Shown one piece after another: positions 12,721 to 56,834 of a stretch of 64,000 nt of DNA. Under the pieces are notes generated by a model, which worked only from the letters and a program-made list of their open reading frames with translations, did no database searches and was not told where the DNA came from. Both the position numbers and the translations under genes were made by a program. Numbering within the stretch: the stretch's first letter is position 1; the number at the start of each line of letters is the position of its first letter. Source of the DNA: Anthoceros angustus (Eukaryota > Plantae > Anthocerotophyta); the NCBI GenBank assembly GCA_010909165.1, contig MU008149.1:372001-436000 (forward strand), written 5' to 3'.

Positions 12721-13429
12721 ATATGATGTTCGATGGAGTCCGACTGCTTCCCTTTCTACACAGACGCTGTTAAGAGATGTCATGAGTTTAATGACAGTCA
12801 CTCGCAACTTCCACAACCTCAAGACTCCCGTCAAAAGGGGTTTTGGAAAAAACCCCAACCCTATTTCGCCGGAAATTGAAGTTGGTTTGGTTTTTGTTGG
12901 TTTTTGTAGGTGTTCATCTATCGGTTTCGGGCATTCTCGGCTCCGGCAGCACTTCGTGTCAAGTCATCTACACCGCGCTGGCGCCTTGTACTCAGATTCA
13001 TGGCGATTTAGTCGGTGTGATAAAGGGCCATTGACCTCATTGTTCCATAATTTCGTCATGTCCGTAGTTTCTGCATTTTGTGTGGTTTTGTATATTTTTG
13101 TATACCAGAGAAGCCTAGGCGCGCATAAGTGCGCGTCTAAACAACGCTATGCGCAAACTTGTGCACACACTGTGCAAAAAGAACGCGAAAAATGATCTCC
13201 TGATGGGGAAACATGTCCTTTTGGAGGTTTGAGGATGTGCCGGAACTTTCAACAAAATAACAAATAGTAGACATCGGCGGAGGTTCACCAAGACCGCTCT
13301 CATATATCTATCCTATGCCCTAATGCGACTAAGAACACCCTATCCCCTTTGTATCCTTTACGGTGTTTCCGTCTTTTTCGGCGGTGACCTAGTACCGGGT
13401 TATCATCAAACATACTAGGGGGGCCAAGC

Positions 13430-15562: not shown

Positions 15563-15630
15563 GTCCCACATCTGTTTAGATGATCCTGCTTCACTTATGT
15601 GTCTCACCATTTGTTGTAAAAGACCACTGA

Positions 15631-16320
15631 TCAGGATATCTTGTGCCTTCTTCTTCTTTGCGTCCTAGGAACACTTATTCTCTTGCCCCCAAGCAGGGCA
15701 TTCAAGAGTTCCATTAACGACTTCCCAAAGCTCTCGGTTATGAAGGACTCTTCGCATTCGTAGGCGCTAGATGTCATAATCTTTGCCGTTGAATATGTCC
15801 TTCTCTTTAAAACCATCTCCATAATTGTGGATTATTGTTGACTTTGACTTGTTTCTCTATTGTCAACCCGTCATACTTCCCTTTGTACTACTCCGTCCGT
15901 TTCTCTATGGTAACTATCCTCTTCTGTAGGAGGTCCTTCTCATCTGCGAGGTCCTTTCCGGCCTTGCTGGCTATCGTAGTCACTGCCTTTCTCTCTTGAT
16001 TTGCTTCTCCTACCCTCTCCAGGGCAATTCTCAAACGTTCCTGCGCCTGATTCTTGGCGGTTTCCATCTCCTCAGCCTTCTTGGCTAAACTTGCTTCTCT
16101 CCCCAGGACCTGATCTATCATCTCCCACACATTCACCAACTGGGTGGTGATCCTATCTCGCTCTTTGGCCATGTCAAGGACAAAATGCTGTTTCTTTGAG
16201 GACGTCTTCAAGGCTCCTTTGAGTTTCTTCTCCACATCCTCCAATTCCTTTTTCACATCTCGAAGTTCAGCACAAACTTCGGCTGCTTCTCTCAAACTTT
16301 CCATTAGGCGTCAACTGGCC
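15631..16320 (-). pseudogene. Another coiled-coil member of the retroelement antisense gene family
   Basis: RIALERVGEANQ...SKAGKDLADEKDLLQKRI...YKGKY aligns with EAALARVG...SKAQRDLEDEKDLLRKKL...YKGKY at ~29530-29680 across frameshifts. Confidence 0.7.
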
Positions 16321-18532: not shown

Positions 18533-20692
18533 ATGGCGGAGCCGAAGGTGGTGGTGGGGTTGGACTTAGGAGCGACATTTTCGGGATTTTCCTTCGCTGA
18601 GACGTCGAATCCGCAGAATATTTATACCTTCAAAGAGTGGTCCATGCCGAATGAAGGAGGCGGAAAGACGTATTGCAAGACGCAGACGAGCTTGTACTAC
18701 GTGCGCGATTCCGGAAAGAGCAGCGGATCATCAGATCCCGATATTTCAATTTCGGGATCATCAGATCCCGAGTTTGTGGTCAAGGATTGGGGCTGGGGTG
18801 CGCAGATGCAGTATATCGAAGCTCTGCACACCGTGTCCGAAATTCAGAGCCAGCTTGCCTCCGATTCGGGAAGGGTTTCCATGGAAGACCAAATTATAGC
18901 TTCAACCAAAGTGTGGCCATTGGAGTCGCAGCAAGAGGTAGGCTGTTTTGTGAGAAAGTTCTTGGGGGACTTCAACAAGGAGACGAAGGACAAGACGAGC
19001 TTGGAGGCCTTCAACGAGGAGAAGGCCGAGGGGAAGGAGTCCGGCAGCAGGAACGGGAAAGGGTTGAAGAAGAAAATTAAGGTGATTCGAAATCGTTTAT
19101 GGAAGGCCTTGAGGGAAACTTCGACCACGAGAGCACGGCAAGACGATGATGCGAGCACGCCATGGCTGGAGGCAGAGACGGTGCTGGAGGCAGAGATGGT
19201 GTACTCGCTTCCACATGGTTTGACGATGCATAGAGCTACAGTTGACTACCTTGGGAGCATTGCGGATTTCATCATACGCCATTTGCAGACCAGGTACGGC
19301 AAACGTTTGTCGAAGAGGGAAGTGCAATGGTGTCTGACAGTGCCTGCCATCATGGACCAAAACGCCAAGCAGCATATGAGGTACTGTGCGGAGAGAGCAG
19401 GGCTGGTGGTCGGTCCTTACTGTCCGTGGGAGATGGTAGACGCTGCCAGCCCCTTTCCTCTGCTCATGCCTTTGGAGCCGGATGCTGTGGCCGGTTATTG
19501 CATCAAGCACTGGACGCACCTGGCGATGCCTTGGAAGAGAGGAGCGGAGTTCTTGGTGGTCGATGCGGGAGGAGAAACAGTGGACATCGCGCGCGTGTAT
19601 GCGACGAAGACTCGCGGAATTAGGGCGCACATCGCGGGTCCTATCACGCAGGATGCGTGCGGAGGGACGTTCGTGGACAGGAATTTCATGAATTTTCTGT
19701 CCACGAAGGTAGGTCGCTTCCTTCCGGATTTTAGCAAGGAGAATCCGCTGGCCATAGCATCGTTGCTGCGGAAGTGGGAGGATTTGAAGAGGAGGTTCGA
19801 CGGGAGCCTAGCGGGGGGGTTCAACTTCGAGCTGCCCGACAAGCTGGCTAGGGCTTGGCAAAGGCACGAAGCCAATGGCATGCAGGCTGGGACGTTAACT
19901 ATCAGGAAGAGCTACCATGAGGTCAAGCTCACGATGCGGGACATGCTCGACATCTTCGACCCTGTAGTGGATCAAATCCTCAGCTTCATCAAGAAACATT
20001 TATCTTCCACTGTTCATCAGCTAATCTTGGTGGGGGGTTTCTCCGCATCGCCTTACTTCTTGAAGCGCGTGCACTATGCCTTCCATAACCACGACATGGT
20101 GAGGGAAATCCTGTGCCCTCCAGACCCTGGTAGCGTCATCTGTCAAGGTGCAGTCGTGCTAGGAGTGTCGCAGCCGGACATCCTCAGTGAGTTGATTAGG
20201 ATTTCACGCAGAACATATTGTTTCCGGGTTCTCAGGAAATTCGAGGCACACAAGGATCCAACTGACTTGCTGGTCATGGTAGATGGCAAATCCAAGTGTC
20301 TCAACGCCTTCGAGTTCGAAGTCCTTGTCAAGAGCGGCGAGCCGGTGGGCGTCAATCGGTGTGTGGAGGTGAGAGTTAATCCTGTCTCCTTGGGTCAAGA
20401 GCGAATAGGTGTGGTGCTGTACAGCACTTATGATCCTAGCCCGCGCTACACTTCTGATCCAGGTGTGAAAGAAGAGGGCTCTTTCTTCCTCGATATTTCT
20501 GAGGACGATCAGGGTTTTGACATTCCGTGTTGGCTGTCTCTCTATTTTTGTTTCGGAAGATCTTATATTCAAATGAAAGCCAAGCGTGAAAATTTTGGGA
20601 ATACTTATGAAGTGGTTCAAGGGTTGAATAAAATAGATTTTCTTTCTGATTATGTTCAATTTTTACCATGGAAATTTGGAGAGTATTTTTAA
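18533..20692 (+). CDS. Intronless HSPA12-type atypical Hsp70 / actin-like ATPase protein, ~719 aa
   Basis: VVVGLDLGATFSGFSFA, WCLTVPAI...AKQHMR..AERAGL, LEPDAVAGYC, FLVVDAGGETVDI, CGGTFVDRNF and LILVGGFSASPYF follow the HSPA12 motif series. The first ATG is at 18533 (the ORF track starts at an upstream GTG). No EEVD tail. Confidence 0.88.
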   Translation: MAEPKVVVGLDLGATFSGFSFAETSNPQNIYTFKEWSMPNEGGGKTYCKTQTSLYYVRDSGKSSGSSDPDISISGSSDPEFVVKDWGWGAQMQYIEALHTVSEIQSQLASDSGRVSMEDQIIASTKVWPLESQQEVGCFVRKFLGDFNKETKDKTSLEAFNEEKAEGKESGSRNGKGLKKKIKVIRNRLWKALRETSTTRARQDDDASTPWLEAETVLEAEMVYSLPHGLTMHRATVDYLGSIADFIIRHLQTRYGKRLSKREVQWCLTVPAIMDQNAKQHMRYCAERAGLVVGPYCPWEMVDAASPFPLLMPLEPDAVAGYCIKHWTHLAMPWKRGAEFLVVDAGGETVDIARVYATKTRGIRAHIAGPITQDACGGTFVDRNFMNFLSTKVGRFLPDFSKENPLAIASLLRKWEDLKRRFDGSLAGGFNFELPDKLARAWQRHEANGMQAGTLTIRKSYHEVKLTMRDMLDIFDPVVDQILSFIKKHLSSTVHQLILVGGFSASPYFLKRVHYAFHNHDMVREILCPPDPGSVICQGAVVLGVSQPDILSELIRISRRTYCFRVLRKFEAHKDPTDLLVMVDGKSKCLNAFEFEVLVKSGEPVGVNRCVEVRVNPVSLGQERIGVVLYSTYDPSPRYTSDPGVKEEGSFFLDISEDDQGFDIPCWLSLYFCFGRSYIQMKAKRENFGNTYEVVQGLNKIDFLSDYVQFLPWKFGEYF

Positions 20693-23065: not shown

Positions 23066-26000
23066 TTAAAACTTGAGGAACCTGCTGACAAAGGAAGACT
23101 TCCTCTGCCGGCCCGCAGCTAGCAGCAAAAGAGCCTCCCGCTCCCGCCGAGTCTCTCTCGCTTCTCGTACCTGCTCCACATCAATGTTGAAAGCTGCTGC
23201 AGCCACCTCCTCCGGGAGCCTCCTCAACACGGAGGTCCTGCCTGCAAGAGCCTCAACAAGCACTACAACAAAATGCTTGGATTTATGACGGGCTCGTAAT
23301 GACGGGTTTCCAGTTGCATTGCTATTGGGGCTTAAAAACCACGGCGCGGCAGATGTATGACGGTTTGGGTTGCACGTCATTGTGCCTGAATGACGGATAG
23401 CCAGCCCATCTTTTTCCATGTCATACCCTCGCAGCCCGGTGCCATGGTTGGCCCCAACAGGTCCGGAAGACCTTGCGGTTGACCGCTTCACCGGTTCAGA
23501 TGCTCACGGCGCATTCCAATCCCCCGCCCCCCCCGCCCCCCATCCGTCCATGCCGTGGCATCTGGATAGCCCAAAAGAGTGCGGCATCGGACGCGGGGTT
23601 TGTCAGAGCATGCTGGTAAAGTCCGTTGAACGGCACTCCGTGCCGTTCAACGGAATGGATGAGAATGACAGACGGCCTTCCGTTGGATTCACGACAATGC
23701 CGTGTCCCGGGCTACGGATAAAACCGTAAGGTCCTTCACCGCTTCGCTGTTCGGCCGCCCCTCCCTTTTCGCACATCGCAATGGATGCTCCACGCAACAA
23801 CCGCCAGATCCCAAGGATTCTCTGCGCTTGCCCAGGCTGCGCCGGTAGCACCCGCGCCATCCGGGCAGACATTGCGGCCCGCCATGAACGCTCTTGGGCG
23901 CGGCTTCTTGCCGAGGTATCGTTTTCCTTTTCCGCCCTACCCCACGCGTACCACCCCACCCAGCGATGGAACCTAACCGCGTATTGTTTTTTGACAGGCC
24001 CGAGCCGACGACCAAGGCCATGAAACTGCCCCGGAATTGGACCTTCCCAACCCGGAGCCGGCGCCGATTCCCCGAGACCAAGCAAGGGCCATTCATCCAG
24101 AACGGGCCGGCATGCCACAGTCGCCGCCATCATCGCCTAGGTCTGACTTTCCAATGGCCGACGACCCCCCAGTGGCCGCCACAGAACACATGGCCAACAC
24201 AATGCAGGAATTGAGAGAGGCGATGGGGGGTGCCGCATGTGACAACCTACGCAAGGCTGCCACAATGCCTATGTGGACAGTCGAGGAGCCCGAACGGGCT
24301 TCCCACACACGGCTGTCTGGGGTTCTTGCATTACTGGCCATCCAGGACCGGTTCAGAATCTCCGACGCGGGCATTAATGCTATTTTCAGCCTCTTGGCGT
24401 CGGACTTCCTCCCCAAGCGCAACACAGTCCCCCGCTCCAGGTCGGAAGTCAAATCAATGCTCCTGCGCGTAGGTCAGAAATGCATCCGCATTGATGCGTG
24501 TGTAGGTGATCGCATCATCGCTGGGGCCCCGCCAAGAAACCGTCTCATGAGTTCTCAAGAGCCCAGTTCCGGCCGGCAGGTCACGATCTGGAAAACGATG
24601 TTTTACTTCCCAATTGTTGATCGACTAAGACGGATGTTTGCGTGCTTGTCCACCGCGGGGCAGCTCACATGGTGGAAAAAGCACCGCAGCACAGATGGGC
24701 TGCTACGTATAATGAGCGACACCCCCGCTTGGAGACAATTGGATGCAGTGGACGGATTCGGAGAGGAGGACAAGAATATTCGTCTGGGCCTAGCAACTGA
24801 CGGCTTCAACCCCAGTGGCCACCGTTCATCGGCTTATACCATATGGCCGGTTCTCCTCCTCATCCATAACCTGCCTCCATGGGTAGCAACCAAACGCCAA
24901 CGTATCCTCATGCCCATCATTATTCCTGGCCCGAAGCAAGTGAAGAACATGGATGTATATATGGCCCCCATGCTCGAGGAACTGCCGACGTTGTGGACGG
25001 GTGTCCCGGCAGCTGACCTTTCCAAACCGGTGGATGACCCAGCTCATTTGTTCACCCTCCGCGCTGCCATTCTACATGCAACTTGCGACTACCCGGGGTT
25101 GGGAGCACTATTTGGGCTACAAGTACGGGGCTACTTGTGCTGCATTGATTGTGGGCACCAGTTAGGCCCCCGCTGGTCCAATGCTCTTGACAAAGTTGTT
25201 GTCGAGGGTCACCGGCATTGGTGTGTAGCTGGAAATGACCCGCGGAGGAAGAGCACATTGAGTCCTTCAACAACCTTCCGGAACGACGACCACCTCCGCT
25301 CCAACAGTCCGTGCAGGATATAGCAGCACAGATGGAAGCATGGGTGAACGCCACCCCTGTTGAGAGGAGCAGCAGTAGGCCGTGGGCCGTGAAGCGCCAG
25401 TCCGCCATTCTTTTCAACCTGCCATACTTACTCCGCAAAACCGGGAGGAAGCGGAAAGAGGAAGGATCCATTTGACGAGGCCGGTGCTAGAGGAAGGGGA
25501 AGCAATCGATGTAGCGGCATCAGAGTGTGGCAAGGAGCAATGAGGATGTAACGGGGGGTTAGAGACCCCGCCAGGTTGAATGTGTGGGCGTTTTTGGGAT
25601 GACCTGTATCTGGCAAGCCGAGTCGGAATGTGTCGGAGCATGCTGACTGGCAGCAGACGAACTGCATAGGCTCTGTTTTGTTTAACGGAGACGCACCAGA
25701 CACCAATCATGCATAACAGTAATATAATCGTTTTTGCCCGATTTAGGCTTGCATCAACGTTATTCAAATCGGGCGGTAGGGCAGATGCTCCCGCAAATGA
25801 ATGACCCGTGGCGGGTAACGCTGGACCCGTGCGCTGAGCTGGTTCGATATGCATCACCAGGCGTATCAAATGTCAGAGCATGTGGGCTGGCTCGGAGGAC
25901 GAATCAGGGAACAAGGGTACGGCAGACGGCCGCAGCCAGGGTCGACCGATAGCTCCCAATGGACGAACAGCGGTGATGGACGGACGGGGACGGACGCCGC

Positions 26001-29000
26001 TCTGGAGCGTCCAACCGGCGTCCAGACGGCCTTCGGCATCGTCCGCAAGAGAGGAGGGGGCCCACCGGAGGTCGGTCATGTCGGAACCGGTCCGCGAGGA
26101 CAGCGGAAGAAGTCCGGTTAGCCCAGCGTTATTGAGGGACCCCGTTCGAGTGGCGTCATTCATTTCGCGAGCACGTTCTTTCAATGACTAGTATTATGAC
26201 AGAAACCCATCCCACCCTCCGTGTCATTAGCAAGCCCGAATCGTGTTTGTCTCATCCATGTCCGCGTCATAAAACTAGACGTTGTGTTGTAGTGAAGGGG
26301 CCTGCAAATGCAAAAGTTCACTCAGATGACGAGATCACCAGATACGATCAGCCTCATCATTGTGCTAGCTAATTGTATAAACAGAGTCTGAGTACGTACT
26401 GGTCGGTGGTGTCGAAGCTGATCCATTCCAAGCCTTCATCGCCAGCCTGAACGCCGTGGGCATGGAAACGGGGAACCACGTATGCGTCACCTTCCCTCAC
26501 TTCCCTATCCACAAGCTGCTCCCCGTTATTGCTGACGATCTGCAGATTAGCGCTGCCCCTCAGGATGTGCACGATTTCATGTCCCGTGGGTGACCACTGT
26601 GGAGCCACGATCGCGTTCTGCACAGGCCAGAAGACATGACTGTTGAAGACCCAGCTGACCAGCTTGAATAGTTCATACCACTCATCGAACAGATACACCC
26701 GACCATCATCCCTTCTCAACCGTCGCACCTCCTCACTCACCTGCACCTACACATGCTCACAAGACTTAGCATACATGACAACAAGAGTAACGTTGAGATG
26801 AAATCTGACTGATCTGTAACAAGGAAAACTATTGTCGTACCTTTGTGCATTTCCTTATGGTATCAGAGCATCAGGATCAGACATGCCACTGAAAGGGTCA
26901 CCTCATGGCTCGTGGCAGGGGAGCCCGTCCATGGGCAAGACCGGCGCATGAGGAACACCGGTCTCCCTAACTACCTTATTCCCCTAACGGTGCTCTACGC
27001 TGCGAATGTAGACCCGTGAAGAGAATCGAACAAGTAGCCACAAATCGAACCAGCAAACCCCTACCTTCGACAACGCGTCTTTGAGGAAGCTCTACCGGAT
27101 TGAAGATAAGGTCCATGTTGAGACCCGCTGCGCAGCTTCCTTGGCATCATTTTGAGAGGCGTAAAGGACCTCCTCCAGCGTGTGAGGTCCCAATCCCAAT
27201 CCATCGTTGTCATCCGGTCTGAGTAAACCCTAACCATGTCCACCGGAGGAGGCGCCCGTGGTGGAAACCGCCGGTAGTCGGCTGTGGCGGGGCGCTGCCG
27301 GAGGTGCAAATCTTGCGGTGGTGCAATGCGATTCGCGGTGGTGCGGCAGCAAACCCTATCGCCCCACACTATGCTAACCTCCGCATAGAAATAAAGGAAA
27401 AGAATAGATTCACGGGTGTAGACTACGATGTCTGGGCTAATCGGATGCAGGGACATCTTGAAGACGCAGACCTATGGACAATAGTCAATGGGTCGGTGCC
27501 CTGCCCTGCAAATGGAACCCCAAACTATGATCAGTGGATAAAATCCGACAGACGAGCCGCAATCTGCTAATTGCCGGCCTCGACAAAAATATGGTTCACC
27601 ACACCTTCGGTGCCTCAACGGCACAAACCATCTGGGAACGCTTCACTCAAATGTTCGAAGCCACCGACGCCCAACACTCCGCCCACTGCCGTAAGGAACT
27701 TCCACAACCTTAAATATAAGGACGGGGAAAGTATCCAGGCACACCTTAGCATCTTCCGCACATTGAGAGCAAGACGCCTCCTGGGACTACCTATGAGGAT
27801 CAGCGCCATAGCCTCCTGACCACATTTCTGACATTTGTGGCAACCCAGAATGCTCTCATGAAGCAGTCTGCACACGCGAAGAAGCTTAAGCTAGGAGAAC
27901 TCATGACCCTCTCGGAGGTCATTGCTGCAATAATTGAGGAGGACTCTGCTAGGGGTCCTTCAAAGAGTGTAGCCCCTGCACAAGCTCTCTTCACCTCACG
28001 TTCTAATGGACAGAGACAGACACGAAACAAGAATTGGCAAAGCAGGAAGGGAGGGGAAGGTTCTTCCCAATCAGGCCCTGCCAACCCCCATCGTAAGGGG
28101 AACTGTAATTGGTGCAGGAAGTTGGGGCACTATGTGCGAGAGTGCTGCAGCAAGCAAGTCGGTGAACCAAGGAAACAAGGTTCCCCAAGTGCTCACCTTA
28201 CACAGAGACCGCCAACAATTCTGATCACCACGCTGACCACCACCACTAGAAGCTGCTCCTCCTGGTACTTGGACAGCGGTGCGTCAGCTCATTGACATTT
28301 TACATGGATAGATGCAAATCAATTAGATTAATAATTACATTATGTATAAAGAAGAAGTACTTACTATATGTGTGTTCAGACAAACCTAGAGCTAACTTAA
28401 CTTGTAGTGAACGGGTGTGACTATACGAAACAACGTAACCCTAGCGAAGAGGTAAGTCTCTTAAGCTACGTACACACTATTTAATATCTGGATATATCTT
28501 GACCCAATCTCATGAGGCTAACATAAATACTTCCTTTACTCCCAATTGTTGGATCATGACGATTTGGACGTCTCCTCTTCGTCTTCTCCTCCGCGGGTAG
28601 CATATGAGACTGTGAAATCAGCTGAGCGTGAAGCCCACCTGTCGGTGTGTACTGGACTACGCCCGCACCTCTAATTCTTTAGAAACGCGATGGAGCGTAT
28701 CTGTGAAACTTTGGAGAGGTGCGCGGCGCTCATTATAGCATTCCTTTATGCTTTGAGTCTTTTATTCTGCAAGCTGCTGGGGCATAAGATCAGTAGGCTC
28801 AGCATGGCGTTCTCTTCAGATGAGTCCGGCTCCTCTCCTACTAAGTGCCGTGTGTATCATCGCGATAGCTTAGGCAGGTTTGTCAGTACTCCTGCTAGAA
28901 CAGCTGCCTCCACTCCGCGTCAAAGACAAGCAGAGATGCCAGCTCCTGCTGCGAGAGGTGGAGGGCGGCCAAGAGGAAGGCCTCGCGGGACTACTAAGGC

Positions 29001-32000
29001 TTTTCTGGAGCAGAGGCGCCTGGGGACAGTATCCTCTCATAAGAATGTCGGTTCTTCTAGCATGGCATCCCCTTGCAGGACTGCCACGCCTGAGGAACAC
29101 ATGTTCACCAGAGACGCCAGTGATAAAATTCGCTTCAAAGCAGGTGAGTTTGAATACGCCGAATCTGACTACCGCCCAGCTGTGCCGCTTAAGTTTCCTG
29201 TGCCAGCAGACTCTGATGATGAGACAAAGATTGTGAGCCTTGGCTCCATCGCCATTCCATGCACTCCTTTGTGGTACAAGTGTCTGTATACCCGACTGAG
29301 GATGGTTCGTGTGAGGGTTGAGCACTGCCGTGAATACGAGAGGCATGTCGTCAGCTACTACCGTGAGTACCACACCGTAATATGTCAACATCCCAGTTTG
29401 TTCTTTCCACTTTCCTAATTGCTCCCACTTGCTGTGCAGGTTCTGAGGCCAGACTTGAAGATGAGCATAGCTTGGAAACTAAAGAGCATATCTCTTATTC
29501 AGAGCCCAGGAAGGAGGCAGAAGGGAAGTTGGAAGCCGCCCTAGCAAGGGTAGGGGCGAAGCTGACAGGGGCAGGCGGCATCTCAGCAAGGCCCAGCGAG
29601 ACCTTGAAGACGAGAAGGACCTCCTACGAAAGAAGTTAGTTGCCATGGAGCAACGGAGGAGCATTACAAGGGAAAGTACGTGACTTGGTGAAAGAACGAC
29701 AAGGATGGGACAATGTGACCAAGGGTCACAAAGAGGAGCTTCGACACGAGAGAACTTTTGGAGCAACAACGAAGAAGGCCGACGACCTTACCCACGCCTA
29801 TGAGACAGAGGCAAGGAACTGCCGGAAGGAAGTTTTGATGGCCCAACGATCTTTGGAGGGTCTTCAGGTCATTCGAGGAAGCGGAGGTAGCCATAGTGAA
29901 ACACATGGCAATGGAAGCCATGGAGAAAGATAAGGAGATTGGGAGATTAGCCCTGGAGTTGGAGGGAGCGATAGTGGAGAAAGAGGCCGCATTGGTAGGA
30001 GTGGCACAACAGGCCAGGTGGGACGAGTGTGTCATCCCGCTAAGGGTCCGCATCATGGACGCACAAAAGAAGGAGAGTGGTAGGGTTTAGGGTTTAGGGT
30101 TTATGGTCACCAGGCGCTACCAGGCAGAGTCATGGTAAAGACTCCCTGGAGGTGGATAAGGCTAAGCGACCCGTCGAGGGGGAAGACATTGAAGGCAAGG
30201 CGAACAAAAGCGTGACGTGGGGACGTCGGTGGGACCTTTTCAAGAGGACGTTTGTCCCAAGTGGTGCACACCTTGGGAAGTGTGAGTATTTAAGAGTGGC
30301 GGCGATAGACTAGGATATTCCGGTCAAGGTGAGTCAATGGTGAGAGGATAAGCGGAAGGGGTGACAAGAGTCCTATTGTTGGACTTGGCAAGTCGCCTAG
30401 CATTAAAGCGCACGAGTGACTAGTCGACTCCCCACCTATAAAAGGGAGGGTGGGAGAATGAATAAACACCGGACCTTGCTTTGCTATGCATTCTTCGCCT
30501 CCCGCATTCCTTTGTGTCTGTGGCCGTCGTCAGCGGCGAAGGGTGAGGTTCGGTCGGAGGCCCTCGCGGCGGGTTCGCTCGACGCAGGCCCCTCCTCTCG
30601 TGAAAGATTGTTGTTGGATGTGCTTTGTGCTGCTGTGGGTTGGCCACTTGCAGGGTGACTAGCGCTCGACTACGCTCGCGCCAGGTGTTCGTGCACGGCA
30701 ATCGGCCCGGGAGAAATACCCAGCTAGTCGCCACCCCAGGCAGATGTGCCGCAAGGGAGGCGTGCAAACTGGTGAACGTTACGAGTAGAGTTAGATTTAG
30801 GGATCGAATGAAGTGGGCTTGAATGGGATTGTTCGCGAGTTATGTTTATGTTGAGAGTAAATTGATCGGTTGCGGGTGTGTCGTTGTAGAGTGAATTGAT
30901 CGGTTGCGGGTGTGTCGTTGTAGAGTGAATTGATCGTTGTAGTTGGCATAGGAGAGTGTTGAGAAGTAAGGAATCCTGGAAGGCGTGGAGCGGGGGCCGA
31001 TAACCCAAAACGCACACGTCATGCAGCGAGGACAAGTAGACCGGGGCGGGAGTATGAGAACGAGAGAGTGAGAGGAACGACTCGCAAACAATCCGAACCA
31101 AATCTCTTGGGATCGAACCTACGTATTCAACGACCGTGGGATAAGTGTGGCCACCGAGGCGAGTTCCGGGTGACCGGGGCTAACCTACCACAGAGAGTGA
31201 GTATGGAGCATTGTCAAAGGCAGGAAGAGAGGTCATTCATTGTAGACAGATCCTTAAGGATCTCGACTATGATCAGTCCGACCCTACCATCCTACACTGT
31301 GATAACACAGCTGCGATATCTTTGACAGAGGGTGACAGATTCCATGCTAGAACCAAGCATATAGAAGTAGCCTATCACTTCATCAGGCACTTGGTAGCCA
31401 AGAGCATTGTAAAAATGGTCTATGTCCCCACAGAGTCCAACCTCGCAGACATGCTCACAAAGTCAGTACCTAGGATCCGTCATTAATCACTTACAACATC
31501 CCTAGGACTGGTGGACACTGCAAGCAAGGAACATTCATGAGATGAGATGGCTTGAAGGCGGGCGAGTGTTGAAGACCTGACAGCTTGAATACCATACCAC
31601 TCATCGAATGTAGACACACCACGGCCGGCTTGAGCAGTTCATACCACTCATCGAATGACACACCACGGCCGGCTTGAGCAGTTCATACCACTCATCGAAC
31701 AGACACACCCTGACCAGCTTGAACAGTTCATACCACTCATCGAACAGACACACCCAACCATCATCCCTGCTCAACCGTCGTACCTCCTCACTCACCTGCA
31801 CCTACACATGCTCACAAGACTTAGCATACATGAGAGCAAGAGTAACGATGAGATGAAATCTGACTGATCTGTAACAAAGAAAACTACTGATATGTAACAA
31901 AGAAAACTACTGTCGTACCTTTGTGCATTTCCTTAACGACACGATCTCGTCATGAGTGAGAGAGCTCGAGAGTACTGCAGCTGGAAAGCATTCATGGATG

Positions 32001-33108
32001 GGTTATGAGCCTGAGGTATACGCTCTCGAGACGGCCGTATGTCAGTCCCAGGTCCACAGCCTTGAGGATAGGCAGCTTGAACCTGTTCACGCTGTTGTAC
32101 AAACCAGCGTCGCGGACGCGAACATCAGCGGATCCTTCGCGAACGTTGTACACGAACTCCCCGTTAGCAAGGTACTCGCGGAGATCGGGGTCGGCCCGCT
32201 CGGCAGATCGTGCGTCGCTGCGGCCCTCTTCCCTGTTGGCCGATTCCGGGACCCTGATCTCACGCTCCACCAGCACAATACCAGCGCCCCTCTGGCTCTC
32301 CAAGAGTTCGTCCACTCGGCTCTCGTCTAGGTCCCAGGCATCAGCCAGGAATTCCCTCCTGAAGCCGTGGAGGATTCCTCTGAATTCCTCCTGCCCACGC
32401 TCCTCACGCGCATGGCCCCGTTCCCGCCTGCTACCGTCGCTTCCGCTTCCGCCGCCGATCAGATGGAACGCCTGCAACAAGACTTGATGAGATGACAAAT
32501 GCGCTGAGTTTGTGGACTTGAGGCAGCTTGCGTCCACTTACAGTGAAGACACCGTCCTGTGAAGCAGATATGTCCGCGATGCCCAGGATGCGGAGTTCTT
32601 CCTTCCCACTGTTGTACCACCAGCCAGCGACTCCTCGGGGGAAGGCAACGACATCGCCACGCCTCACACGCCGAACTCCAGATAACTCACCCAAGGAGTA
32701 GCCGCTCAGAATCCCCACAATGCCCTTTCCTGCGCCAGCAGCGACAGTTGCAGGCAGCATTGTCAAACCAACGTGCTCGTGCTGCAGGAGCATTGATCGA
32801 GACGAGATCAATGCATCACATTACCACAAGGCAGGAGTTTCCTCACACCCACCTTCCTCAACGTATCCGATGGCAGCGGAATCAGCGTAGCGGGGCAGGA
32901 GCAGGCCGCGCTGCCTGAGAGTGACCCTGGCTCCTGCAACATTGGCGTCTCTCAGGGCCCGAAGGTCCCACTGTTCCAGCCGTCCTCCGTCTGTCCGGAG
33001 GATCTCTTGCGGCTCTTGAAGCTGCAGCTCCTCACGCTCAGCGCTCGCCAAGGATGCCACCAGGAGCAGGCCCAAGACCAAAGCCAAAGCTGAAGCTGAG
33101 CGACCCAT
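23066..33108 (-). CDS. 11S globulin/legumin-like bicupin with signal peptide; 5 exons (33108-32853, 32729-32542, 32471-32022, 26617-26400, 26301-26295 plus 23257-23066), ~436 aa; exon 5 interrupted by CACTA, so probably a null allele
   Basis: Hydrophobic leader MGRSASALALVLGLLLVASLASA; GLLLPRY; GDVVAFPRGVAGWWYNSG; beta-chain motifs LPILK, NAIVAPQW, AGDEGLEWISFDT and LAGRTSVLRRLPEEV. All introns are GT-AG and the exons total 1311 nt in frame. Confidence 0.92.
23261..26294 (+). mobile_element. CACTA/En-Spm DNA transposon (deleted derivative, ~3.03 kb), TSD AAG
   Basis: TIRs CACTACAACA (23261) and TGTTGTAGTG (ends 26294). AAG at 23258-23260 and 26295-26297. atgacgg-type subterminal repeats. Confidence 0.97.
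24037..25440 (+). pseudogene. TnpD-like (Transposase_21) transposase fragment
   Basis: RIDAC, YFPIVDRLRRMF, NIRLGLATDGFNP, IWPVLLLIHNLPPW, IIPGPKQ, TCDYPGLG and FNLPY are present. The C-terminus is missing. Confidence 0.9.
28293..28538 (-). repeat. 3' LTR of a nested, truncated A-related Copia (element D)
   Basis: Begins TG exactly where the protease of C stops. Ends ttccttta followed by ctcccaattgttggatcatgac, matching the LTR/PPT junction of A (ttccttca ctcccacttgttgatcatgac). Confidence 0.75.
28804..30230 (+). CDS. Spliced antisense extra gene of element D: AT-hook-like exon 1 (28804-29362), 77-nt intron (29363-29439), coiled-coil exon 2 (later frameshifted and deleted)
   Basis: GRPRGRPRG motif. 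GTGAGT donor, CTAAT branch-like site and TGCAG acceptor; splicing joins the 28690 ORF in frame with SEARLEDEH...KLEAALARVG. Confidence 0.7.
30081..30103 (+). repeat. Interstitial plant telomere repeat (TTTAGGG)n
   Basis: tagggtttagggtttagggttta. Confidence 0.8.
30860..30945. repeat. 34-bp tandem repeat (~2.5 copies) in an LTR-like block at 30280-31185
   Basis: aattgatcggttgcgggtgtgtcgttgtagagtg duplicated. Confidence 0.85.
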
Positions 33109-33165
33109 GGTGCAGGACACTGGCAGCCAGGTTCGAATACCCCATGAAAGAAGCAGCAGAGCCGA

Positions 33166-33448
33166 GAAGCATTTGTACTACTGGTGGGTGGCAGGGGCGG
33201 ATATGGCAAATGCATCAACATTCAGTCTCACTGGGGCAACACTGTCAGTTTACCACCTTGGGATCCATTAAAAGTTCCAAGGGACGCCCACTCACGCTGC
33301 GGAAGCATTTGTACTACTGGTGGGTGGCAGGGGCGGATATGGCAAATGCATCAACATTCAGTCTCACTGGGGCAACACTGTCAGTTTACCACCTTGGGAT
33401 CCATTAAAAGTTCCAAGGGACGCCCACTCACGCTGCGGAAGCATTTGT
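33166..33448. repeat. 136-bp perfect tandem duplication in the cupin proximal promoter/5' region
   Basis: gaagcatttgt starts at 33166, 33302 and 33438. Confidence 0.95.
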
Positions 33449-34956: not shown

Positions 34957-37900
34957 CTAATGGTAAGCTAATGGCCCAGACCTCGACAAAACAAAGCGCC
35001 TTAGTGGACTCAGTCTTCCGTCCCTTCTCTTATCCCCCTTGAACGTGGAGCTATATTCTAAAGGACCAGAATAACGAACTCTACTGTTGGGATTGTGTTC
35101 ACCTGGATCCGGGAAGGAGGCCGACTCCATCGCACGCCTCCGTTGAGAATGGATTTTTAAAGGACCTGTCAATATCGAGCCCCTGGAACCTGAATCAGTT
35201 TCACCACCAGTATCACTTATGTTCCAGCCTTTACCTGGACTAGCAGAAATCCCTTGCGAATGCCGTCGAGAAAGGCTGACAACAGCCAAGGTTGGTACAG
35301 CATTCTCATAATAGAGCTGGTATATTGAACGCAGAACTGTGTAGGGCACAGATGCTTCCAGCGTGCTCCGAGGAAGGTGACTGGAAAACTCGCAAAGGTG
35401 ATCAAGAAACACCAACTTTGCAACAAGAGGGCTCCTGAGAAACAACACAACATAAAGAATCATGTGGATACCAAGGCTCACGCAAAAGCAAGACGCAGTA
35501 GTTCTGAAGTAAAATCGCACCTGACTGTGTCATTCCAAGCCTCTAGGATAATTGCTGAAGAACACTGCACAAAGACTTTCATGTTGGCCTTTGTGTTGGT
35601 TTCAACATCTGCTGTGGTCTCCTTCGGAAGAACCTCAAAACCAATCTCGTCTCTTCTGTGCGGTTGCTGAGCAAGGAGCTGCTTCTGAAGCTCCTTGCGT
35701 TCAGAGCGAACCAACTCACTAGCAAACAGGACAGCATTGATACACCTATTTGAGACACCACATCAGCTTATCAATCACTCACAGCGACCATTAGAATGGA
35801 GGATCGGCAGTAAAACAACTGCATAAACTCACCTGGCTAAACAGTGAACACTGTTGTTGAAACCTCCTGTGAGCACATTGAACGCGCTCATTTGCCAGAC
35901 ATTCGACGTCATACAAGCTATATAAAAGTATGGGAGAAGAGCCCAGGTTGAATCGCCTGCGCCCCCTATGTCCATCATAATAGAGTGCACCATCACCGCA
36001 TCTTGCTCTACACTTGCTCCAATGCGGCTGGCCAGCAACTTCAGTTTCAAGAGATCTTGCCTTTCTGGTATGGATGAAGGACAGAACTTGACAAAGTCTG
36101 CAAAAACTGAGAATAGAAGGGGTGTACTTGACTCAAGCACCTGGGAGGCAGCTCTAGCTAATAAAGCCCTCATACTCAAGGTGTGGCCAATCTGTAGTGA
36201 AAGTTTCATAAAATTTTCCAGGTCTGAGATGTGTTTCAATCCGTACTCCCTCTCCACACGATCATGAATGTTGGAAGCGAATGCTTCTAAGGCTTCTTTG
36301 TTTGATCGCAGGATCAGGTCCACGGAATTGAGAAGGGTAGCAAGATGCTCTCTAAGACCAGCATCGAGCTTATCCATTCCATATGGTCCAAACACACGAA
36401 CAAAAGCCCTTAACTCTGCTACATCAGTCAAAGACTCGGCAGATGCTAAACCTACGAGCTTCAGACTCTTGAAACACGAATCCAAAGGTGAAAAGCAAAC
36501 TCCAGCAGACTTTACATCCTTGATGACGTTCTCCAAATACCAGTCACAAATTGAGGAGACTGCTCCACCACCAGGACTGAGGTTGCTACCAGGAGGGTGA
36601 AGGTCTCGCATCCGTCCTGAGAATGCCTCAGTAAGGAGGACTTCTCTAAGGCCTCGTGTCAGATCCATGCTTACATGCTGCTCGATAAGATGCACAATGG
36701 TCATGTGTCGCAATATTTGACTCTCAAACACAGATGGTCGCTGAAGGTCTCCCTCCACAAATATTGTGTTCAGAAGTCGAGAGCGAAAGTTGTTGAGTAG
36801 CCTGTCCCGCAGAAACTACAGAACCCATGGAAACCGATTAGACAACTTTAAAGAAGCCCATACCCGTGTGGGGAAAGACATCAGCAGAGTAACCTGAAGG
36901 GGGCACTTCTGAGCCATCTACTTACTTCTCTGGGAACAAAGACATGGTTTTGAATCCGCAGAGGTTCTAGTTCATTGAGCTGGGAACAGAGACTCGTTAG
37001 CCTTTGCACGGCTGCCTCAAACCTGCCAAGGACAAATGAGACCAATCAAACTACACATCTCAGAACAACATTCAGTGCCAACCAAGACTAACAGCTGCAG
37101 TACTCACGTTCTAATGGAGCTCCGGCTTGCAGGTTCACTTTCAGAGCCCGGAAGATCGATGCTGCCTTTCACTGATCTTAAAGTTGAGATGCCATTCTTC
37201 GCAGCTTGGTTCATTAGTATTGCAGCATGTTCCGGAAGAAGCTGCACTCGTGCAAGCCAGAAGATAAATCTAAGGACACCATGGATATAACCAAAGTCCC
37301 TAGGTCTTCAGAGCTCCAAACAGAAGCAAGAAGGTGAATATACGTACCTTCCTATCAAGAGCACCATATCCTCCCTCAGTGTCGAGGATATTAATGAGGC
37401 CCTCCAGGCCCCCCATAACCGACTCCAATATGGATTCCGCATATACAACTGAATCCTTTGAGAGTTTTGGAAGCTGCTCACAGCATGCCAACAAGCATAG
37501 GCCAATAGACATAAAGGCCACTGGAATTATGAGCTTCCAGAAGTGATGCGCTTGTTTTCCTTTGAGATCAAAAGATGAAAAAACATACCTCATCGAGCAC
37601 ACTGCCATGAACATTTTCAGGAAAGCTGCTTGCAATGCTCAACCAAGCACAGCAATGTTGTGGGCGGCCCTCTGGTCCAAACATGGTGTGCTTGAACACC
37701 TGGGGCAATCAACAGATCCATTTGAAGCACATGAGTGAAGGAAGCGATACCAACATCATCCATATCAACGGCCTTTAGTTCCCTAGCACCAGGGCAAAAC
37801 CATTAGGGGCTGAGACCCTCAGTACCGCAGTGATTTGCTGGCGGTAGAAACAAAGTGCTTTAAGACTGCTATGCTGAGAAATTTGTTTTTCGACATCATC

Positions 37901-40900
37901 AACAGTCCTGCAAAAAACCATTGGGAGAGCCAAATTACTATCAAAATATCTCAAAAGAGGCACAGTACACTACACCAGATATTTCAGTTGCTAGTCTTCC
38001 AAGTACCTGGACCACAAGTAAGCCATATTTCCTTCTGAAACTATGCTCTCCTTTCCTGTGGAAATAGTGGCCTTGTCAAGGTGACGAATTGTCACAGAAG
38101 AGTGTGAGGATGAGATTATCATAATTACTCGAAGCCAATCCTTGCGAAATCCCTGAACAACACCAGCTTAGCTTATTCACTACACTTCAAGAAGCAGAAT
38201 TACTAAGGGGGACCAACGCTCTAAAATAGGAAGGGGACTGTGTGGGAGGTGGTAACTGAACCTGCAATTCGATAGCGGATGGTGAAGTGCGGAGAGATAA
38301 CTGAACTGCAGTCGTAACTAGCTTCTCACTCTGCAACTTTGGTACTCGTTCAAGATTATCAATCACGGACATGAAAAGTCCACGCAGTTCCGCATCAATG
38401 TCAAGAGCTATCATCCCAGGACAACCCAAGAGAAATCTTATTCTTTGTGCTCCAGCCGCAAGACAACCCAGTGCATACCCTCTGACAGCTGTAGTGTTTG
38501 CAAAGTGCAGGTTACAAACAGGCTTCACTGGCAGCAATAAATATATATACATACATGTACATACATAAGCATGCGAAAGACAAACCTGAGATATACTTGC
38601 GCAATAGTCCACATAATCGCTCCATCCCATCCAATAGGAAACCTATTGTCGCATCTGTCGTATCCTAAAATTATCAACAGCTCAGGTTATACGGCAGTTT
38701 ACTCTTACGAAATACAGAACTTGATGACCAACCACCAACTTCAACTTGGAAAGCTTTTGAAAGAGTTCTCATCTTACCATGTCAACTGGGACAACACGAG
38801 TCCCCTTGGCCCGTGTGATAACAACACCCACATGGCTGAAATACCATATGATTTCAGATCGTGCCATAGCCAGTGCGGAGAAAACCATCTGCAATATGCA
38901 ATGGCATCCACTTAAGGTTACCTGGTGCATTTGTTTGCCCACACAGGCTCTACAAAATAATCTTCATAATACCTGAATGTTTGGTGCTAACAGGCTTGGT
39001 TGATCTGAAAAAAAAAGAATCATACGACCAAGCTCCTGCTTCAACAGCATACGCTGCTGCCTGTGGGTTATATCAGAGCTGAGTATTGCAATGTCATATG
39101 CATCACTGCAAAATGCACATGACAAGAGTAAGCATGGCAGTGACACTGCAGGCAAAGAGCACACTAATCACTAAATTGTGTTAGACAAAGCCAAATAAAG
39201 AAGAGAAACCATTTTCCAATAGATGTAACAAAACAACCAAACGTGTCTGCAGGTTTAGAGTGTGTCAGCCGTACCAGATTGTTCGCTCAACCTGTTTGGC
39301 AAGATTGTATTCAAGATCTGCATCCTTCAGCCTCGTTCTCCCTGCTTTGGCTAGCTTTTTCGCATCCACCACTTTTGGGATGACATATTGTTGATACTCT
39401 TCATGCAAAAGAATGTACTGCAAAGGAACACCACGACCTAATCAGATTTTCACAACACCTAACAGCATCAGATTTTGTCACGATAAGCAACATCACAGAC
39501 TATAAACAGCTTACTTCGTCACGAAACAGAGGCAGCACCAGGCTGGTCTTAAATATGGCCTGCAAAACAATAAGATAACATAAGCCAAGGAACAAGTACA
39601 AGTAGGAAGCTGCTTCGACCTGCAACTGTTGGGTGGAGGGTTGTCATGAGACCCTAGTCATCATTTCAGGAAACAGCACAATTGGATCCAAAATTGAGAC
39701 CTCTTCATGCAGGAAAAGGTGTCTAGTAAAGTTCGCGAATCACAAACCATCAATACATCAATTGCATTGACTCTGAGAAGTTCACTTGGGCAGACAAGGT
39801 ACCCAAGCAGCACCCAATCACGATAAGAATCAATGTTGGCTAATTCCTGCGCTCTCTGCAGCCACAAACGAAAGGAACCTATGAGACCAGGGCCAGAAGC
39901 CAGAGCAAGCGCCCATATTAAGCAGCTTCAAAGTCATTAGCCATTCCATCAACTTCCAACATGAATACCCACAATCAAGCAGAGGGGCATTGAACAGGCA
40001 TACCGCAGGATGAGCAGAATTTGTGAGTTTATCAGGATATCTGGGATGAAAGGGGCTCAAAAATCCTTCACTTCGCAGCTTTTGGAAATTTGTACCAAGA
40101 TAAACTGTTGGCCGAATAGCCTCCAAGATCTGCATACTCATCTTCATTAGACATCTTCGAGACAATTTGGGACCTTCTGAAAGCACGAAACCTCCAGAAT
40201 ACAAAGTCTTGAACTCCAGAGAAAGCAACAGCCGACTGTATGCACTCTGGTAGAGATATCCACATAGCACATTACACACACCTCGCCAACACGAGGGCTC
40301 ACGAAATTGAGATCTTCGTGTAGTCCTTTCAGTGGTTCATCATATGAATCAACAAACTGAACCAGTCTGCACACAAAACAACAAGTGAATCGCTTGCCAG
40401 TTATCCGGGACAAACTCTGGAAAACTGCAAAAATGATTTTCATACCGGTGATAAAACTCATAGTCCCTCCCATTCTTGACATAGCTATGTGCTAGGTTAT
40501 AAACCTGCAAAAGCATCTTCCTCGGAACCTAGAAAGCAAGCACAGGCTCTCAACTGCTATTGCACAGCTGTGTTGGCAGAAAAAGAATACCACGTCTAAC
40601 AGGGTGCCTACCTTCTCTGCGTAGAGATTAACTCTCACGAAGGCACAGAACAGGTCCATGAAAGCATGAAGCACCAATGGGTTCTGATGCGGCTGCACAA
40701 GATATTCGTAAGGATTAGTTTTCAAGGTTTACAGACTTCTGCAACTGGGACCAGTTCACAAAAAGCTTGACATTGCTCTGTGTGACTGCTTTGAATTTCG
40801 TTCCATCGTAGATTTGAAGTGCAAGTTACATCAGGCCAAATAGTCAAGTACCAGAAGAGTGACCACAGTGCTGCTCAGGTAAAGAATCACCCGTAGTGCC

Positions 40901-41713
40901 TGTTCACGAAATGTCATCAAATCATAAAGCACCTGCCATATGTTTCAAGAAAACTGGTAAGATGGCCTCTGCGCCAGGCAATTCACGGTGGTAGCAAAAA
41001 AACCAGTGGCCAAGGTATTCGTCATGGTTTGAGAGAGGAACTGAGTTTGTAAAACGTCCGAACGGTATTAGTGTGGGAATCCTACCAAAAGCCAAGGCTC
41101 CAACGCAGCGAGATACTGCTCAGCGTTATCTTGCAGCACATCCAGACCGGCTTTGTCTACCTGCATTACACAGCGCACAAATGAGGAAGAGATGACACAT
41201 GCACAAGCAGAGTGTGTATGTGTCAACTCCCACCGGCGTCAAAGACAGTGAAACGAAGCAGAACCCCACCTTGTCGAGCTGCATTTTGCCAGGATGCTCG
41301 GGAAACCTTTTGGCAACATAAGTGCAGAGCTTCGGAATGTCAGGGAATAGCCCTGACTTGGTAAACGCCTCCGAAAACTGCAACGAGCCACTGTTAGGAA
41401 GATCGAGAATCTGCCGCAGCTGATACAACTTGGTCATCAGCCCCTCCGCGATGACGTTCAGATGGAATATTCCTTCTATCTGCCGGATCCGCTGGCTGCT
41501 TCTCCCATTGGTCTGCTGTCCGAGCATGCTCGGAATCCTCCTGTAAACAGACGAATGCGATGACGACCCCGAGCTGTAGTCGTTCCAGCCAAAAGCATCC
41601 TCACCATCGTCGCTCCTGGCGTGCCCCTCCGGAGCAGCGTCCCGCTTGAAGAAGCTGGACGGCTGCCGTGCGTAGCGCGGCGGCTGGCCATTGCCATACC
41701 TGTCGCCTTCCAT
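34957..41713 (-). CDS. NAP1: NCK-associated protein 1 (NAP1/NAPP/GNARLED), SCAR/WAVE complex subunit; ~23 exons
   Basis: Collinear exons match plant NAP1: HAFMDLFCAFVRVNL, LKGLHEDLNFVSPRVGEV, GFLSPFHPRYPD, WVLLGYLVCP, TMFGPEGRPQHCCAWL, MGGLEGLINILD, LQRPSV...EQHVSMDLT and SRSGPLAY-stop. Checked introns are GT-AG. Confidence 0.97.
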
Positions 41714-42975
41714 CTCCCCTTCCCAGCTCCCCTCCACAAGCACCTAAACTTGCTCTCCCCGACTGCTACCTCCCCTGCTGCAAATCGGGCACCCGAGCGT
41801 CACCAGCAGGCGCAATCCGTATCTAATTCGGAAGAAAGGCTCCAGCTTCTCTCCACATTGCATTGCCGAGCCGTCCCCGACCGCAGCTGGCAGGACATGA
41901 GGACAGGCTCCTGACGGGAGCAAGGTAATGAGGCTGCGCTCGCAGACTATGCCGGGGCTGATAGCAGCTGCAGTAGCCGGACAGACGAGAGCAGTGCTGA
42001 GCGGCAATGAAGGGAGCAAGCATTGAGAGGACGGCGTGCGTGTCAGGCTGCAAACACAGGTCGACTTGCTATCCGCCCGCGCCTGCGAAGTGCAGTGGAA
42101 GGACCCCACGGGTTCCTGCCATCACCACTGCCCAGAGAGTTAGCCCGGGCTCCCGAGACGAGGCCCGCGCGGCTCGTCTCGTCTCCTCTCGCGAGGTGGT
42201 GTGGACAGGAGAATCTGACTTGTGAACAGGAGTCACAGAGTCACGTTTTGAGAAACGCGACTCGAGCCTTTCGGACACTGTACGGAACGCGTCACTCCCT
42301 TCGCTCACTCGCCAACTAGGCTATACGGGACATACTGGATACATTCTACATGTACCAGTGTGCATATGAACGTGAAACTTGAAACGTCTTACATGGACGC
42401 ATTAATCAATCAGTCTTTATATTGTTAAAGAGAGATAGATCTACATTCAAATAGTGTGAAAGTGTGAAAAGAAGGTTTTAAAGATTTTATAAAGATATCT
42501 TATTATATTATATTAAAGTTTAAAATCCAAAAAAACTATTTGTTGTTAGGGTTGTATAGGAAGTATCTCTCGATGCAAATTTGTTGTTGGAAAGATTATT
42601 TATCGTTGTTGGGAGGATGGCTTTAACCATTACTCCCTCGAGCGCAAAGGATACCTATTGTCCAATGAAGGCTACGGATTAGGGATACCCACCTGGAGAG
42701 GTGTTCTATCGTAGAGCTGCCGAGGTGGCCGTCCCTATGGACGGGCGTTCCTACACGTAAGTGCGTGGGAAAGACGAGAGCTCCAACACACGAGGCTTTT
42801 GCTCTATGGACCGAGCGCATAGCGTGACGTCTGTTGTGTAACTTTAATCTGGTTGCCCGATTAGCAACCAAACTAAAAATCCGTATCTTTCTCCACAACA
42901 GTTGTGAGTTTTTATCGTGAAACAGCGAAGAGGTGAAAATCTATGAATGTTCCAAAATGTACGATTGAAATTTTA

Positions 42976-45249: not shown

Positions 45250-46045
45250 TGCTAAACATGGGGGGCCATACAACTGTACGTTGAAATGCGTACCTCAGGG
45301 TTTAAGGTGGGTGGGACGATTTTGCAGCTGCTCTTCAAGGTTGCGCATTTTCGGCCGACTTGGAGTCTGGCAGGATTGTGCATTGTGATGTGTTGCACAG
45401 TGGCATTGGCACCTGCCTGGTGGACATGTATGCTTTATGTGGCGAACTGGAAGATTCACGCCAGGTTTTTGACTTGGACGGCCCTCACTGCTGGGTATGC
45501 ACATCGTGGGCCCGGTGAAGAGGCGATTGATCTGTATGGACTAATTGAGCAGGGGGTCCTGATTTTGGCAAACCATTCCACTTTTGCGTGCCTTCTGAAG
45601 GGCTGTGCAAGTGCTGGTGCCTTACAGAAGGGCAGGCAGCTGCATTCACAGATTATGGAAAGAGGACTCCTAGATGGCACACTGGCTGGCACCTGCCCGG
45701 TGGACATGGCAGATACCCATGGTCAAAATGTGGCGAACTGGAAGATGCTCGCTGAGGTTTTGCCTGCTTGGTCACAAAGGATGTGGTGACATGGAATGCG
45801 CTGATTGCATGGTATGCAAACCATGGGCTCTGAAATGGCTTTGCGGGCATGCTGAGAAGCTAGCTCTGGCGTGTGGTGTCTTGAACACTCCAAGTGGCAC
45901 ACCTCGGCTGGTAACCAAAAATCTATGCATGGGCAGTGACGGCAACAGTCCCACCGAGATCATGTCGAGGGTTGAAAAAAGAGACATTGTTGTAAGGGAT
46001 GGGTACCGTGTGCATCGATTCGCAGCTGGTTGTTGCAGTTGAGGG
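45250..46045 (+). pseudogene. PLS-class PPR-DYW RNA-editing factor pseudogene, internally deleted
   Basis: TCLVDMYALCGELEDSRQVFD, WTALTAGYA, TFACLLKGCAS..ALQKGRQLHSQI and DVVTWNALI are followed directly by CGHAEKLALA...VTKNL...VVRD..RVHRF..GCCS. CxxC is degraded. Confidence 0.9.
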
Positions 46046-51979: not shown

Positions 51980-52013
51980 TCCTCCTAACAGTACTGAGCT
52001 GCTAATTAATCAT

Positions 52014-56830: not shown

Positions 56831-56834
56831 GAAG

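Follow-up and report, generated by a model that had tools for sequence, protein, structure and literature searches.

Antisense additional open reading frames (ORFs) between pol and the 3′ long terminal repeat (LTR), known as aORF-3R and of unknown function, have been described in several retrotransposons (PMC7264820). Examples are maize Grande gene23, rice RIRE2, Silene Retand, and PvRetro13 (PMC7264820, PMC11963269), and brtn of Botrytis Boty (PMC8365987, PMC4227169). Grande gene23 is transcribed from an antisense promoter of its own and its product is nuclear; antisense promoters are also listed in AtRE1 and Mdoryco1-1 (PMC7264820). The DNA in this study is a 64,000-nucleotide (nt) stretch of Anthoceros angustus (assembly GCA_010909165.1, contig MU008149.1, positions 372,001–436,000; hereafter the window), in which a full-length Copia element (A) and a fragment (D) nested in another Copia (C) share a frame antisense to the element and close to its 3′ LTR. 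A sequence-only reading of this DNA had described a Copia family with a spliced antisense gene encoding an AT-hook and a coiled coil. Our best reading is that the antisense ORF of A and D belongs to the known aORF-3R class, which is rare in Copia, and that the spliced coiled-coil part is probably an accident of nesting.

According to REXdb, the main reference survey, plant Gypsy lineages commonly have antisense accessory ORFs and Copia almost none (PMC6317226). They are concentrated in the Ty3/gypsy lineages Retand (86%) and Ogre (60%; Neumann 2019, PMC6317226). With a cut-off of at least 250 codons, an antisense 3′ ORF is found in 1% of SIRE and in none of Lyco, Bryco, and Gymco; Bianca and Ikeros have small percentages, for which the column assignment is unreadable in the text copy (PMC6317226). 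The env-like ORFs of Sireviruses are in sense orientation (PMC6317226). Nothing on extra ORFs appears in the available passages of PMC13468544, and the terms “intron,” “AT-hook,” and “coiled” are absent from those of PMC11963269. A literature search over titles and abstract starts, with most subscription papers outside its coverage, returned no spliced antisense ORF in plant Copia.

The frame of A and D has the slot and orientation of aORF-3R and, like that class, lacks a cellular homolog and is predicted to bind DNA (PMC7264820, PMC11963269). It differs in that its host element is Copia, not Ty3/gypsy, in a 3′ region of only 1.2 kb, and in the presence of a hydrophobic N-terminal helix. Unlike Retand-type frames, it has no Pfam match to TRP28 (PF04195), PMD, DUF390, or SMC. 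The 250-codon cut-off applied to eORF-3′R in the Copia part of REXdb would miss the 242-codon D frame (PMC6317226). With the Sirevirus env-like ORFs it shares the superfamily, a position 3′ of pol, and a hydrophobic segment, but its antisense orientation sets it apart, as the earlier description had maintained. The coiled-coil extension of Sirevirus Gag finds a parallel in the coil ORFs of a further element, G, and of the coil homolog H, which are in sense to neighboring Copia gag; the gag of A has no such extension, its zinc-knuckle region leading to protease in approximately 60 codons.

The antisense frame of Copia A and fragment D

The features on which the comparison is based are as follows (window positions).

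3562–10335, minus strand: full-length Copia A, with LTR pair, target-site duplication, primer-binding site, polypurine tract, gag, protease, reverse transcriptase (RT), and RNase H
3962–4557, plus strand: homolog of the antisense ORF in A, with several frameshifts, ending in TAG-TAA that overlaps a GT at 4557
26640–31935, plus strand: outer Copia C, with LTR pair, gag-protease to 28292 and RNase H resuming at 31187, but lacking integrase and RT
28293–28538, minus strand: 3′ LTR of fragment D, 246 nt, GC 0.33, homologous to the LTRs of A
28539–28551, minus strand: polypurine tract of D, matching that of A at 3819–3831
28690–29418, plus strand: D's antisense ORF, with 242 codons if unspliced and 224 as far as the proposed donor

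Comparisons among A, D, G, and H are confined to the 64-kb window, in which two copies represent the family, A and D. Copia A has TG..CA LTRs that are 97% alike (249 matches, 6 mismatches, 2 gaps), a 5-bp target-site duplication (GATAG), and a tRNA-Met-type primer-binding site (TGGTATCAG). Its gag and protease are Copia-type by Pfam, and RT and RNase H were recognized by tblastx/tblastn to another Copia; all four are frameshifted. Their order fits gag–protease–integrase–RT–RNase H, with integrase assigned by its slot before RT and without a profile match. RNase H ends near 5060 and the 3′ internal region is 1242 nt long; the opposite-strand ORF at 3962–4557, followed by the polypurine tract at 3819, thus lies between pol and the element's 3′ LTR. 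The 1.1-kb 5′ leader of A contains a 216-codon sense frame upstream of gag (9170–9817, minus strand) with no real Pfam match, which is possibly a second extra ORF.

Fragment D comprises only the 246-nt LTR, the polypurine tract, and approximately 1 kb of internal DNA. The outer end of its LTR adjoins protease codons (DSGASAH) of Copia C, and the LTR resembles those of A and nothing else in the window. The sequence-only reading had treated D as a Copia element in its own right, which does not hold: no second D LTR was found in the window, and no pol match better than an E value of 2 in 28293–31186. D is filed as Copia solely because its LTR, polypurine tract, and ORF are homologous to those of A. 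The antisense frame is absent from the short 3′ regions of two other Copia 3′ ends, those of C and of an element with RT at 62680–63999.

A and D align from the LTR on through the antisense frame, which is open in D from 28675 to 29418 and is present in both family members within the window (2/2). For D 28690–29362 against A the DNA score is 122, a value reached by 0/300 shuffles in each of three nulls, and the maximum over 402 other window segments is 90. This substantiates the claim of a homologous region in A with matching position and orientation. Taken separately, the first third and the last third are each significant (0/500 shuffles), and the middle third, which holds the proposed AT-hook, is not (312/500). 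Two ATG codons and the motifs RCA, RD..G, RGTTK, GSI, P.WY, and HVV align between the copies despite approximately 40% DNA divergence.

The ORF had been thought to start inside the 3′ LTR. Both ATGs of D in fact lie in the internal region, beyond the LTR (28293–28538) and polypurine tract (28539–28551): ATG 28690 is 152 nt and ATG 28804 is 266 nt from the LTR boundary, and their counterparts in A are at 3962 and 4080. It is probable that translation starts at the upstream conserved ATG 28690, which would add a hydrophobic helix. The segment between the two ATGs is alike at the DNA level (2/1000 shuffles) and hydrophobic in both copies (Kyte–Doolittle 19-residue maxima of 2.36 in D and 2.14 in A). 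The 224 residues up to the proposed donor include 36 K/R and 23 D/E. ATG 28804, HRDSLGRF, and GRPRGRPRG are all present in D as first described, and an RDxxGRF/RDxxGGF motif occurs in D and A. The putative AT-hook stands only in D, where the GRPRGRPRG core is found; A reads RLGRRGTTK. This core presumably resembles an HMGA-type AT-hook, and RDxxGRF the GRF motifs of NF-YA/CCT type.

A single-sequence AlphaFold model of the D ORF has a mean predicted local distance difference test score of 48.6 and is confident only for a helix spanning residues 2–37. It places a hairpin over RDSLGRF, and low-confidence strands and a helix at the end, where the C-terminal stretch is possibly folded. The remark that the protein was not recognized as described is consistent with the searches, as relatives are absent from every database searched. 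The ORF from 28804, searched at near lengths, yielded 0/583 confirmed candidates, and the ORF from 28690 has no credible relative among 1.84 billion representatives; the sole match there (E value 2.6e-4) is a tandem-repeat translation judged spurious. ESM Atlas contains no usable match, PDB sequences one match only (E value 6.2), and Pfam nothing at an E value of 5. Pattern matches in metagenome and viral contigs were confirmed in 0/276, 0/9, and 0/595 cases.

Coding constraint was assessed by holding the aligned A–D blocks fixed and randomizing mismatch positions in 500 simulations at three gap settings. The D frame gives z values of 2.0–2.5 (p 0.008–0.026) at all three settings, and over the whole exon every other frame has p of at least 0.13. 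The LTR served as a negative control and scored accordingly; the positive controls, RNase H and the coil, gave z values of 3.5–6.5. At the sequence level, these results lend moderate support to coding constraint on the antisense frame. A 202-codon element-sense frame at 28873–29478 was rejected as a coding frame (p 0.22–0.64).

A reading in which the antisense frame has no function as a gene, and represents homologous 3′ internal DNA or a decaying captured gene fragment open by chance in D, seems to us quite unlikely. The A copy is broken in several places, with a longest open plus-strand stretch of 144 codons, the 202-codon frame on the opposite strand of D suggests that long frames come easily in this DNA, no homolog was found in any database searched, and the protein-level alignment lacks significance. 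However, the substitutions favor the D frame specifically, the two ATGs and several motifs align after such divergence, and the pol of A is frameshifted too, though the LTRs of this element are nearly identical. A third explanation, proposed for aORF-3R loci generally (PMC7264820), is that the locus acts mainly as an antisense RNA, giving double-stranded RNA by which silencing of the element is adjusted, and that the protein is a by-product. A codon-level substitution pattern is not expected for an RNA-only role, and we regard this explanation as very improbable here. The idea of a Copia family with an antisense accessory gene kept across diverged copies survives as a probably protein-coding frame in A and D; its spliced AT-hook/coiled-coil form is not supported.

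Intron-like segment, coiled coil, and nesting in Copia C

The features relevant to splicing and to the coiled coil are listed below; fractions are of shuffles.

4715–4870, plus strand: short acidic frame 3′ of the ORF of A, 14 D/E in 51 residues
29363–29439, plus strand: intron-like segment of 77 nt with GTGAGT, CTAAT, and TGCAG, phase 1, a candidate intron
29440–29504, plus strand: junction zone between D-type and coil-type sequence, with significant likeness to neither H nor A (against H, 321/1000; against A, 136/1000 for DNA and 98/2000 for protein)
29505–30313, plus strand: frameshifted coiled-coil ORF (element G), homologous to H
30377–31185, plus strand: LTR-like segment of G, 809 nt, TGTTGG...CTAACC, with TATA and then AATAAA at 30437
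15860–16304, minus strand: first half of coil homolog H, its frame running approximately 65 codons upstream of the place of the D acceptor
11198–12665, minus strand: second half of H, with a tail of 30-nt tandem repeats
15557–15850, minus strand: N-terminus of a Copia gag (element E), directly behind the first coil half, continuing at 12660–12755, with a zinc knuckle near 11020–11060

The 77-nt GT–AG segment with GTGAGT, CTAAT, and TGCAG is present as described. The strict donor/branch/acceptor pattern, which was set post hoc, has one plus-strand match in the window (the D segment) and three on the minus strand; 2.65 are expected per 128 kb (20 Markov resamples), and one match within 1 kb of one strand would be roughly a 2% event for this post hoc pattern. 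T+C is 0.64 in the segment versus 0.50 and 0.35 in its flanks. Its removal eliminates the ORF stop and joins the frame to the first coil segment. The proposal that it splices into a long coiled-coil exon is correct for this in-frame join but not for the exon, as the spliced D frame stops after 66 codons (29637). It meets four stops before 30230, and three different frames share the homology to the coil.

A GT donor had been reported at the same site in A. In an ungapped block of 34 nt this GT, at 4557, is offset by 2 nt from the D donor. It overlaps a double stop, TAG-TAA, and no CTRAY branch point follows it. The only YAG acceptors 55–175 nt past this GT are 4724 and 4727, both after purine-rich sequence. 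The acidic frame at 4715–4870 is a possible second exon of A, and its likeness to the start of D exon 2 is borderline (98/2000 shuffles). The simplest alternative to splicing is an unspliced antisense ORF, which in A would end at TAG-TAA and in D would run 18 codons further. Use of another donor, at 29144 (phase 1), would cut out the conserved last third and is unlikely, and descent of the D intron from degraded H-type coding sequence was rejected (655/1000 shuffles).

Homology of the coil to sequences noted earlier at 11198–12720 and 15631–16320 is real, but both belong to a single copy, H, of which they form collinear halves. Coding evolution of the coil on the plus strand is supported (p 0.002–0.004, D versus H), and the D–H likeness is significant only from approximately 29505. 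The region downstream of the ORF in A has no likeness to H (154/300) or to the D coil (63/1000), and the coiled coil is not supported as an exon of the family gene, as A has no coil region. Conversely, neither exon 1 (295/300) nor a D-type LTR (263/300) is present in the 2.1 kb upstream of H. A search with the H coil at longer lengths confirmed 0/799 candidates. Inside the coil ORF, where likeness to H falls, there is a TTTAGGG doublet of plant telomere type (30086–30105), possibly filler from break repair.

H interleaves with a Copia gag on the same strand, in the order coil 16304–15860, gag 15850–15557, gag 12755–12660, coil 12665–11198, and zinc knuckle at approximately 11040. Within 10860–16320 (minus strand) the coil halves are collinear to within approximately 10 nt despite the gag between them. 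The pattern could stem from template switching by RNAs packaged together, from scrambling during repair, or from a chimeric assembly.

The right end of the LTR-like segment of G adjoins RNase H codons of Copia C at 31187, and its TATA–AATAAA pattern, defined post hoc, marks it as plus-oriented. The only other match to this pattern is an LTR behind a sense coil-like ORF at 53370–56200. Coil homology to the ORF at 53370–56300 was rejected, there being no tblastn match at an E value of 1.

The 2.9-kb block at 28293–31185 within Copia C is bounded at both ends by outward-facing LTR or LTR-like termini adjoining C coding sequence. Two insertions and one deletion are the simplest way to account for such termini. 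D would have entered C at its protease, and G, another LTR element, at its RNase H; a deletion would then have taken the pol and 5′ LTR of D, the integrase and RT of C, and the front of G, thereby joining the antisense ORF of D to the sense coiled-coil ORF of G. On balance we lean toward this view from the sequence, in which the A/D lineage has an antisense accessory ORF of approximately 200–240 residues and the coil of D comes from a different element, joined by deletion. The D and G block (28272–31190) replaces the integrase and RT of C at near-normal length, the distance from protease to RNase H motifs being 2918 nt across the block versus 2774 nt in A.

Contigs from one DNA sequencing run (share 0.05) placed on 26500–32000 (194 records; 19 of 30 bins with depth) cover approximately 29450–31280, with the greatest summed depth at 29628–30547. 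One lies on the D LTR, and none on 28524–29443 or most of the C gag. This coverage fits a chimera but is not counted as evidence, given its gaps and its reliance on summed contig depth. The contigs differ from the window by one-base indels at several coil positions.

A true spliced antisense gene in the D subfamily, consisting of exon 1 and a coil captured from G, with the G LTR as polyadenylation site and the frameshifts as assembly errors or recent decay, is in our estimate unlikely. The 77-nt motif is host-like in size, pyrimidine-rich, and the sole strict plus-strand match; excising it takes away the ORF stop and leaves the first part of the coil in frame; substitutions in the coil point to coding on the plus strand; and local duplications differ mainly by indels, so that some frameshifts may be sequencing errors. 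Set against this, A has no coil, branch point, or canonical acceptor, H has coding sequence at the position of the D intron and no exon 1, the G LTR end adjoins RNase H of C rather than pol of D, and the spliced frame as written stops at 29637.

Several observations weigh against an antisense accessory ORF joined by deletion to a foreign coil. A frameshift-aware protein alignment of D and A scored 45, and 12 shuffles gave 29–46. A third-position test has p 0.03 at one gap setting and p 0.19–0.73 at two stricter ones, two other frames score equal to that of D in the last third, and the comparison is between two copies only. The hydrophobic segment between the ATGs has a protein match without significance (675/2000). 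Unlike a hook of HMGA type, the D core has no match to Pfam AT_hook even at an E value of 5, and the hook is not intact in A as read. The LTR-like segment of G has no second copy in the window, and we infer its LTR identity; its homology to the LTR at 52578–53366 was weak (2–5/500 shuffles, with other window segments alike) and was rejected as firm. Finally, a random deletion is unlikely to have left, by chance, a strong intron motif at the end of the D ORF, in frame and within approximately 65 nt of the start of coil homology. A similar CAGGT occurs in H near the place of the D acceptor, so the acceptor may itself derive from G.

A possible role for the antisense protein

By analogy to Grande gene23, the frame would be transcribed from an antisense promoter located within the AT-rich 3′ LTR or next to it, giving an mRNA for a basic, mostly disordered protein. 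The LTRs have a GC content of 0.32–0.33 versus 0.50 for the window. Through its RDxxGRF and GRP-type motifs the protein would contact the LTR DNA of its own element in the minor groove, the hydrophobic N-terminal helix could tether it to a membrane, and it would help transcription of the element or nuclear entry of the element's cDNA. If the mRNA of A were spliced, its second exon would be a short acidic tail. We offer this mechanism tentatively, and as a whole it is doubtful.

In a more elaborate version, a Copia lineage of non-flowering land plants has a spliced antisense gene whose product is anchored in a membrane and binds DNA in the minor groove. Its two starts would give one anchored and one free form, and its last exon would be interchangeable, coding for an acidic tail in A and for a coil captured from another retrotransposon in D. 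We hold this to be decidedly unlikely. If true, it would constitute a family of accessory proteins not described before, akin to the antisense regulators of retroviruses, in a superfamily credited with hardly any.

A short Copia case with an unfamiliar protein would, if true, show that the antisense layout arose again independently, and such genes would be missed by a 250-codon, intron-blind search. At 1.2 kb the region is compact and lends itself better to testing than the 3–6 kb regions of Retand. The coiled-coil exon was probably borrowed from a neighbor, which makes the original finding less surprising.

Host gene, assembly quality, and neighboring repeats

The window is filled by nested transposons that adjoin a host NAP1/Nckap1 gene at 34960–41743 (minus strand). 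Among 22 matches, its closest relatives, at 57–61% identity, are from Riccia, Diphasiastrum, Calypogeia, Selaginella, and an entry labeled “Gb”; those labeled flowering plants are 46–50% identical. Gaps between its exons are mostly approximately 65–330 nt, corresponding to small host introns.

The copies within two tandem duplications, at 13658–15562 and 48665–51983, differ mostly by homopolymer-type indels, with 36 gaps versus 13 mismatches in one pair and 59 gaps versus 39 mismatches in the second. This suggests an unpolished long-read assembly, and given the excess of indels over substitutions some frameshifts may be assembly or sequencing errors.

Other features include a CACTA-type Transposase_21 ORF at 23995–25323 (plus strand, E value 3.6e-46) and, in the middle of the transposon nest, a 719-codon ORF without intron at 18533–20692 (plus strand) with a weak Hsp70 match (E value 0.016). 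Gene fragments encoding pentatricopeptide repeats and a DYW deaminase are found at 45256–46042, and pieces related to them lie near 48100 and 57100. Two related copies of a long ORF that begins M(A/G)PKK..EV.EPW, with no Pfam match in the three pieces scanned, are present at 53370–56900 (minus strand) and 60300–61750 (plus strand); their DNA score is 557 versus 120 in shuffles. The first of these has a coil-like end, followed by a G-rich tract and the LTR-like segment 52578–53366. A cupin (germin-like) gene copy (26372–26746 and 31956–33177) is interrupted by Copia C, and a second, related cupin copy lies near 1945–2860.

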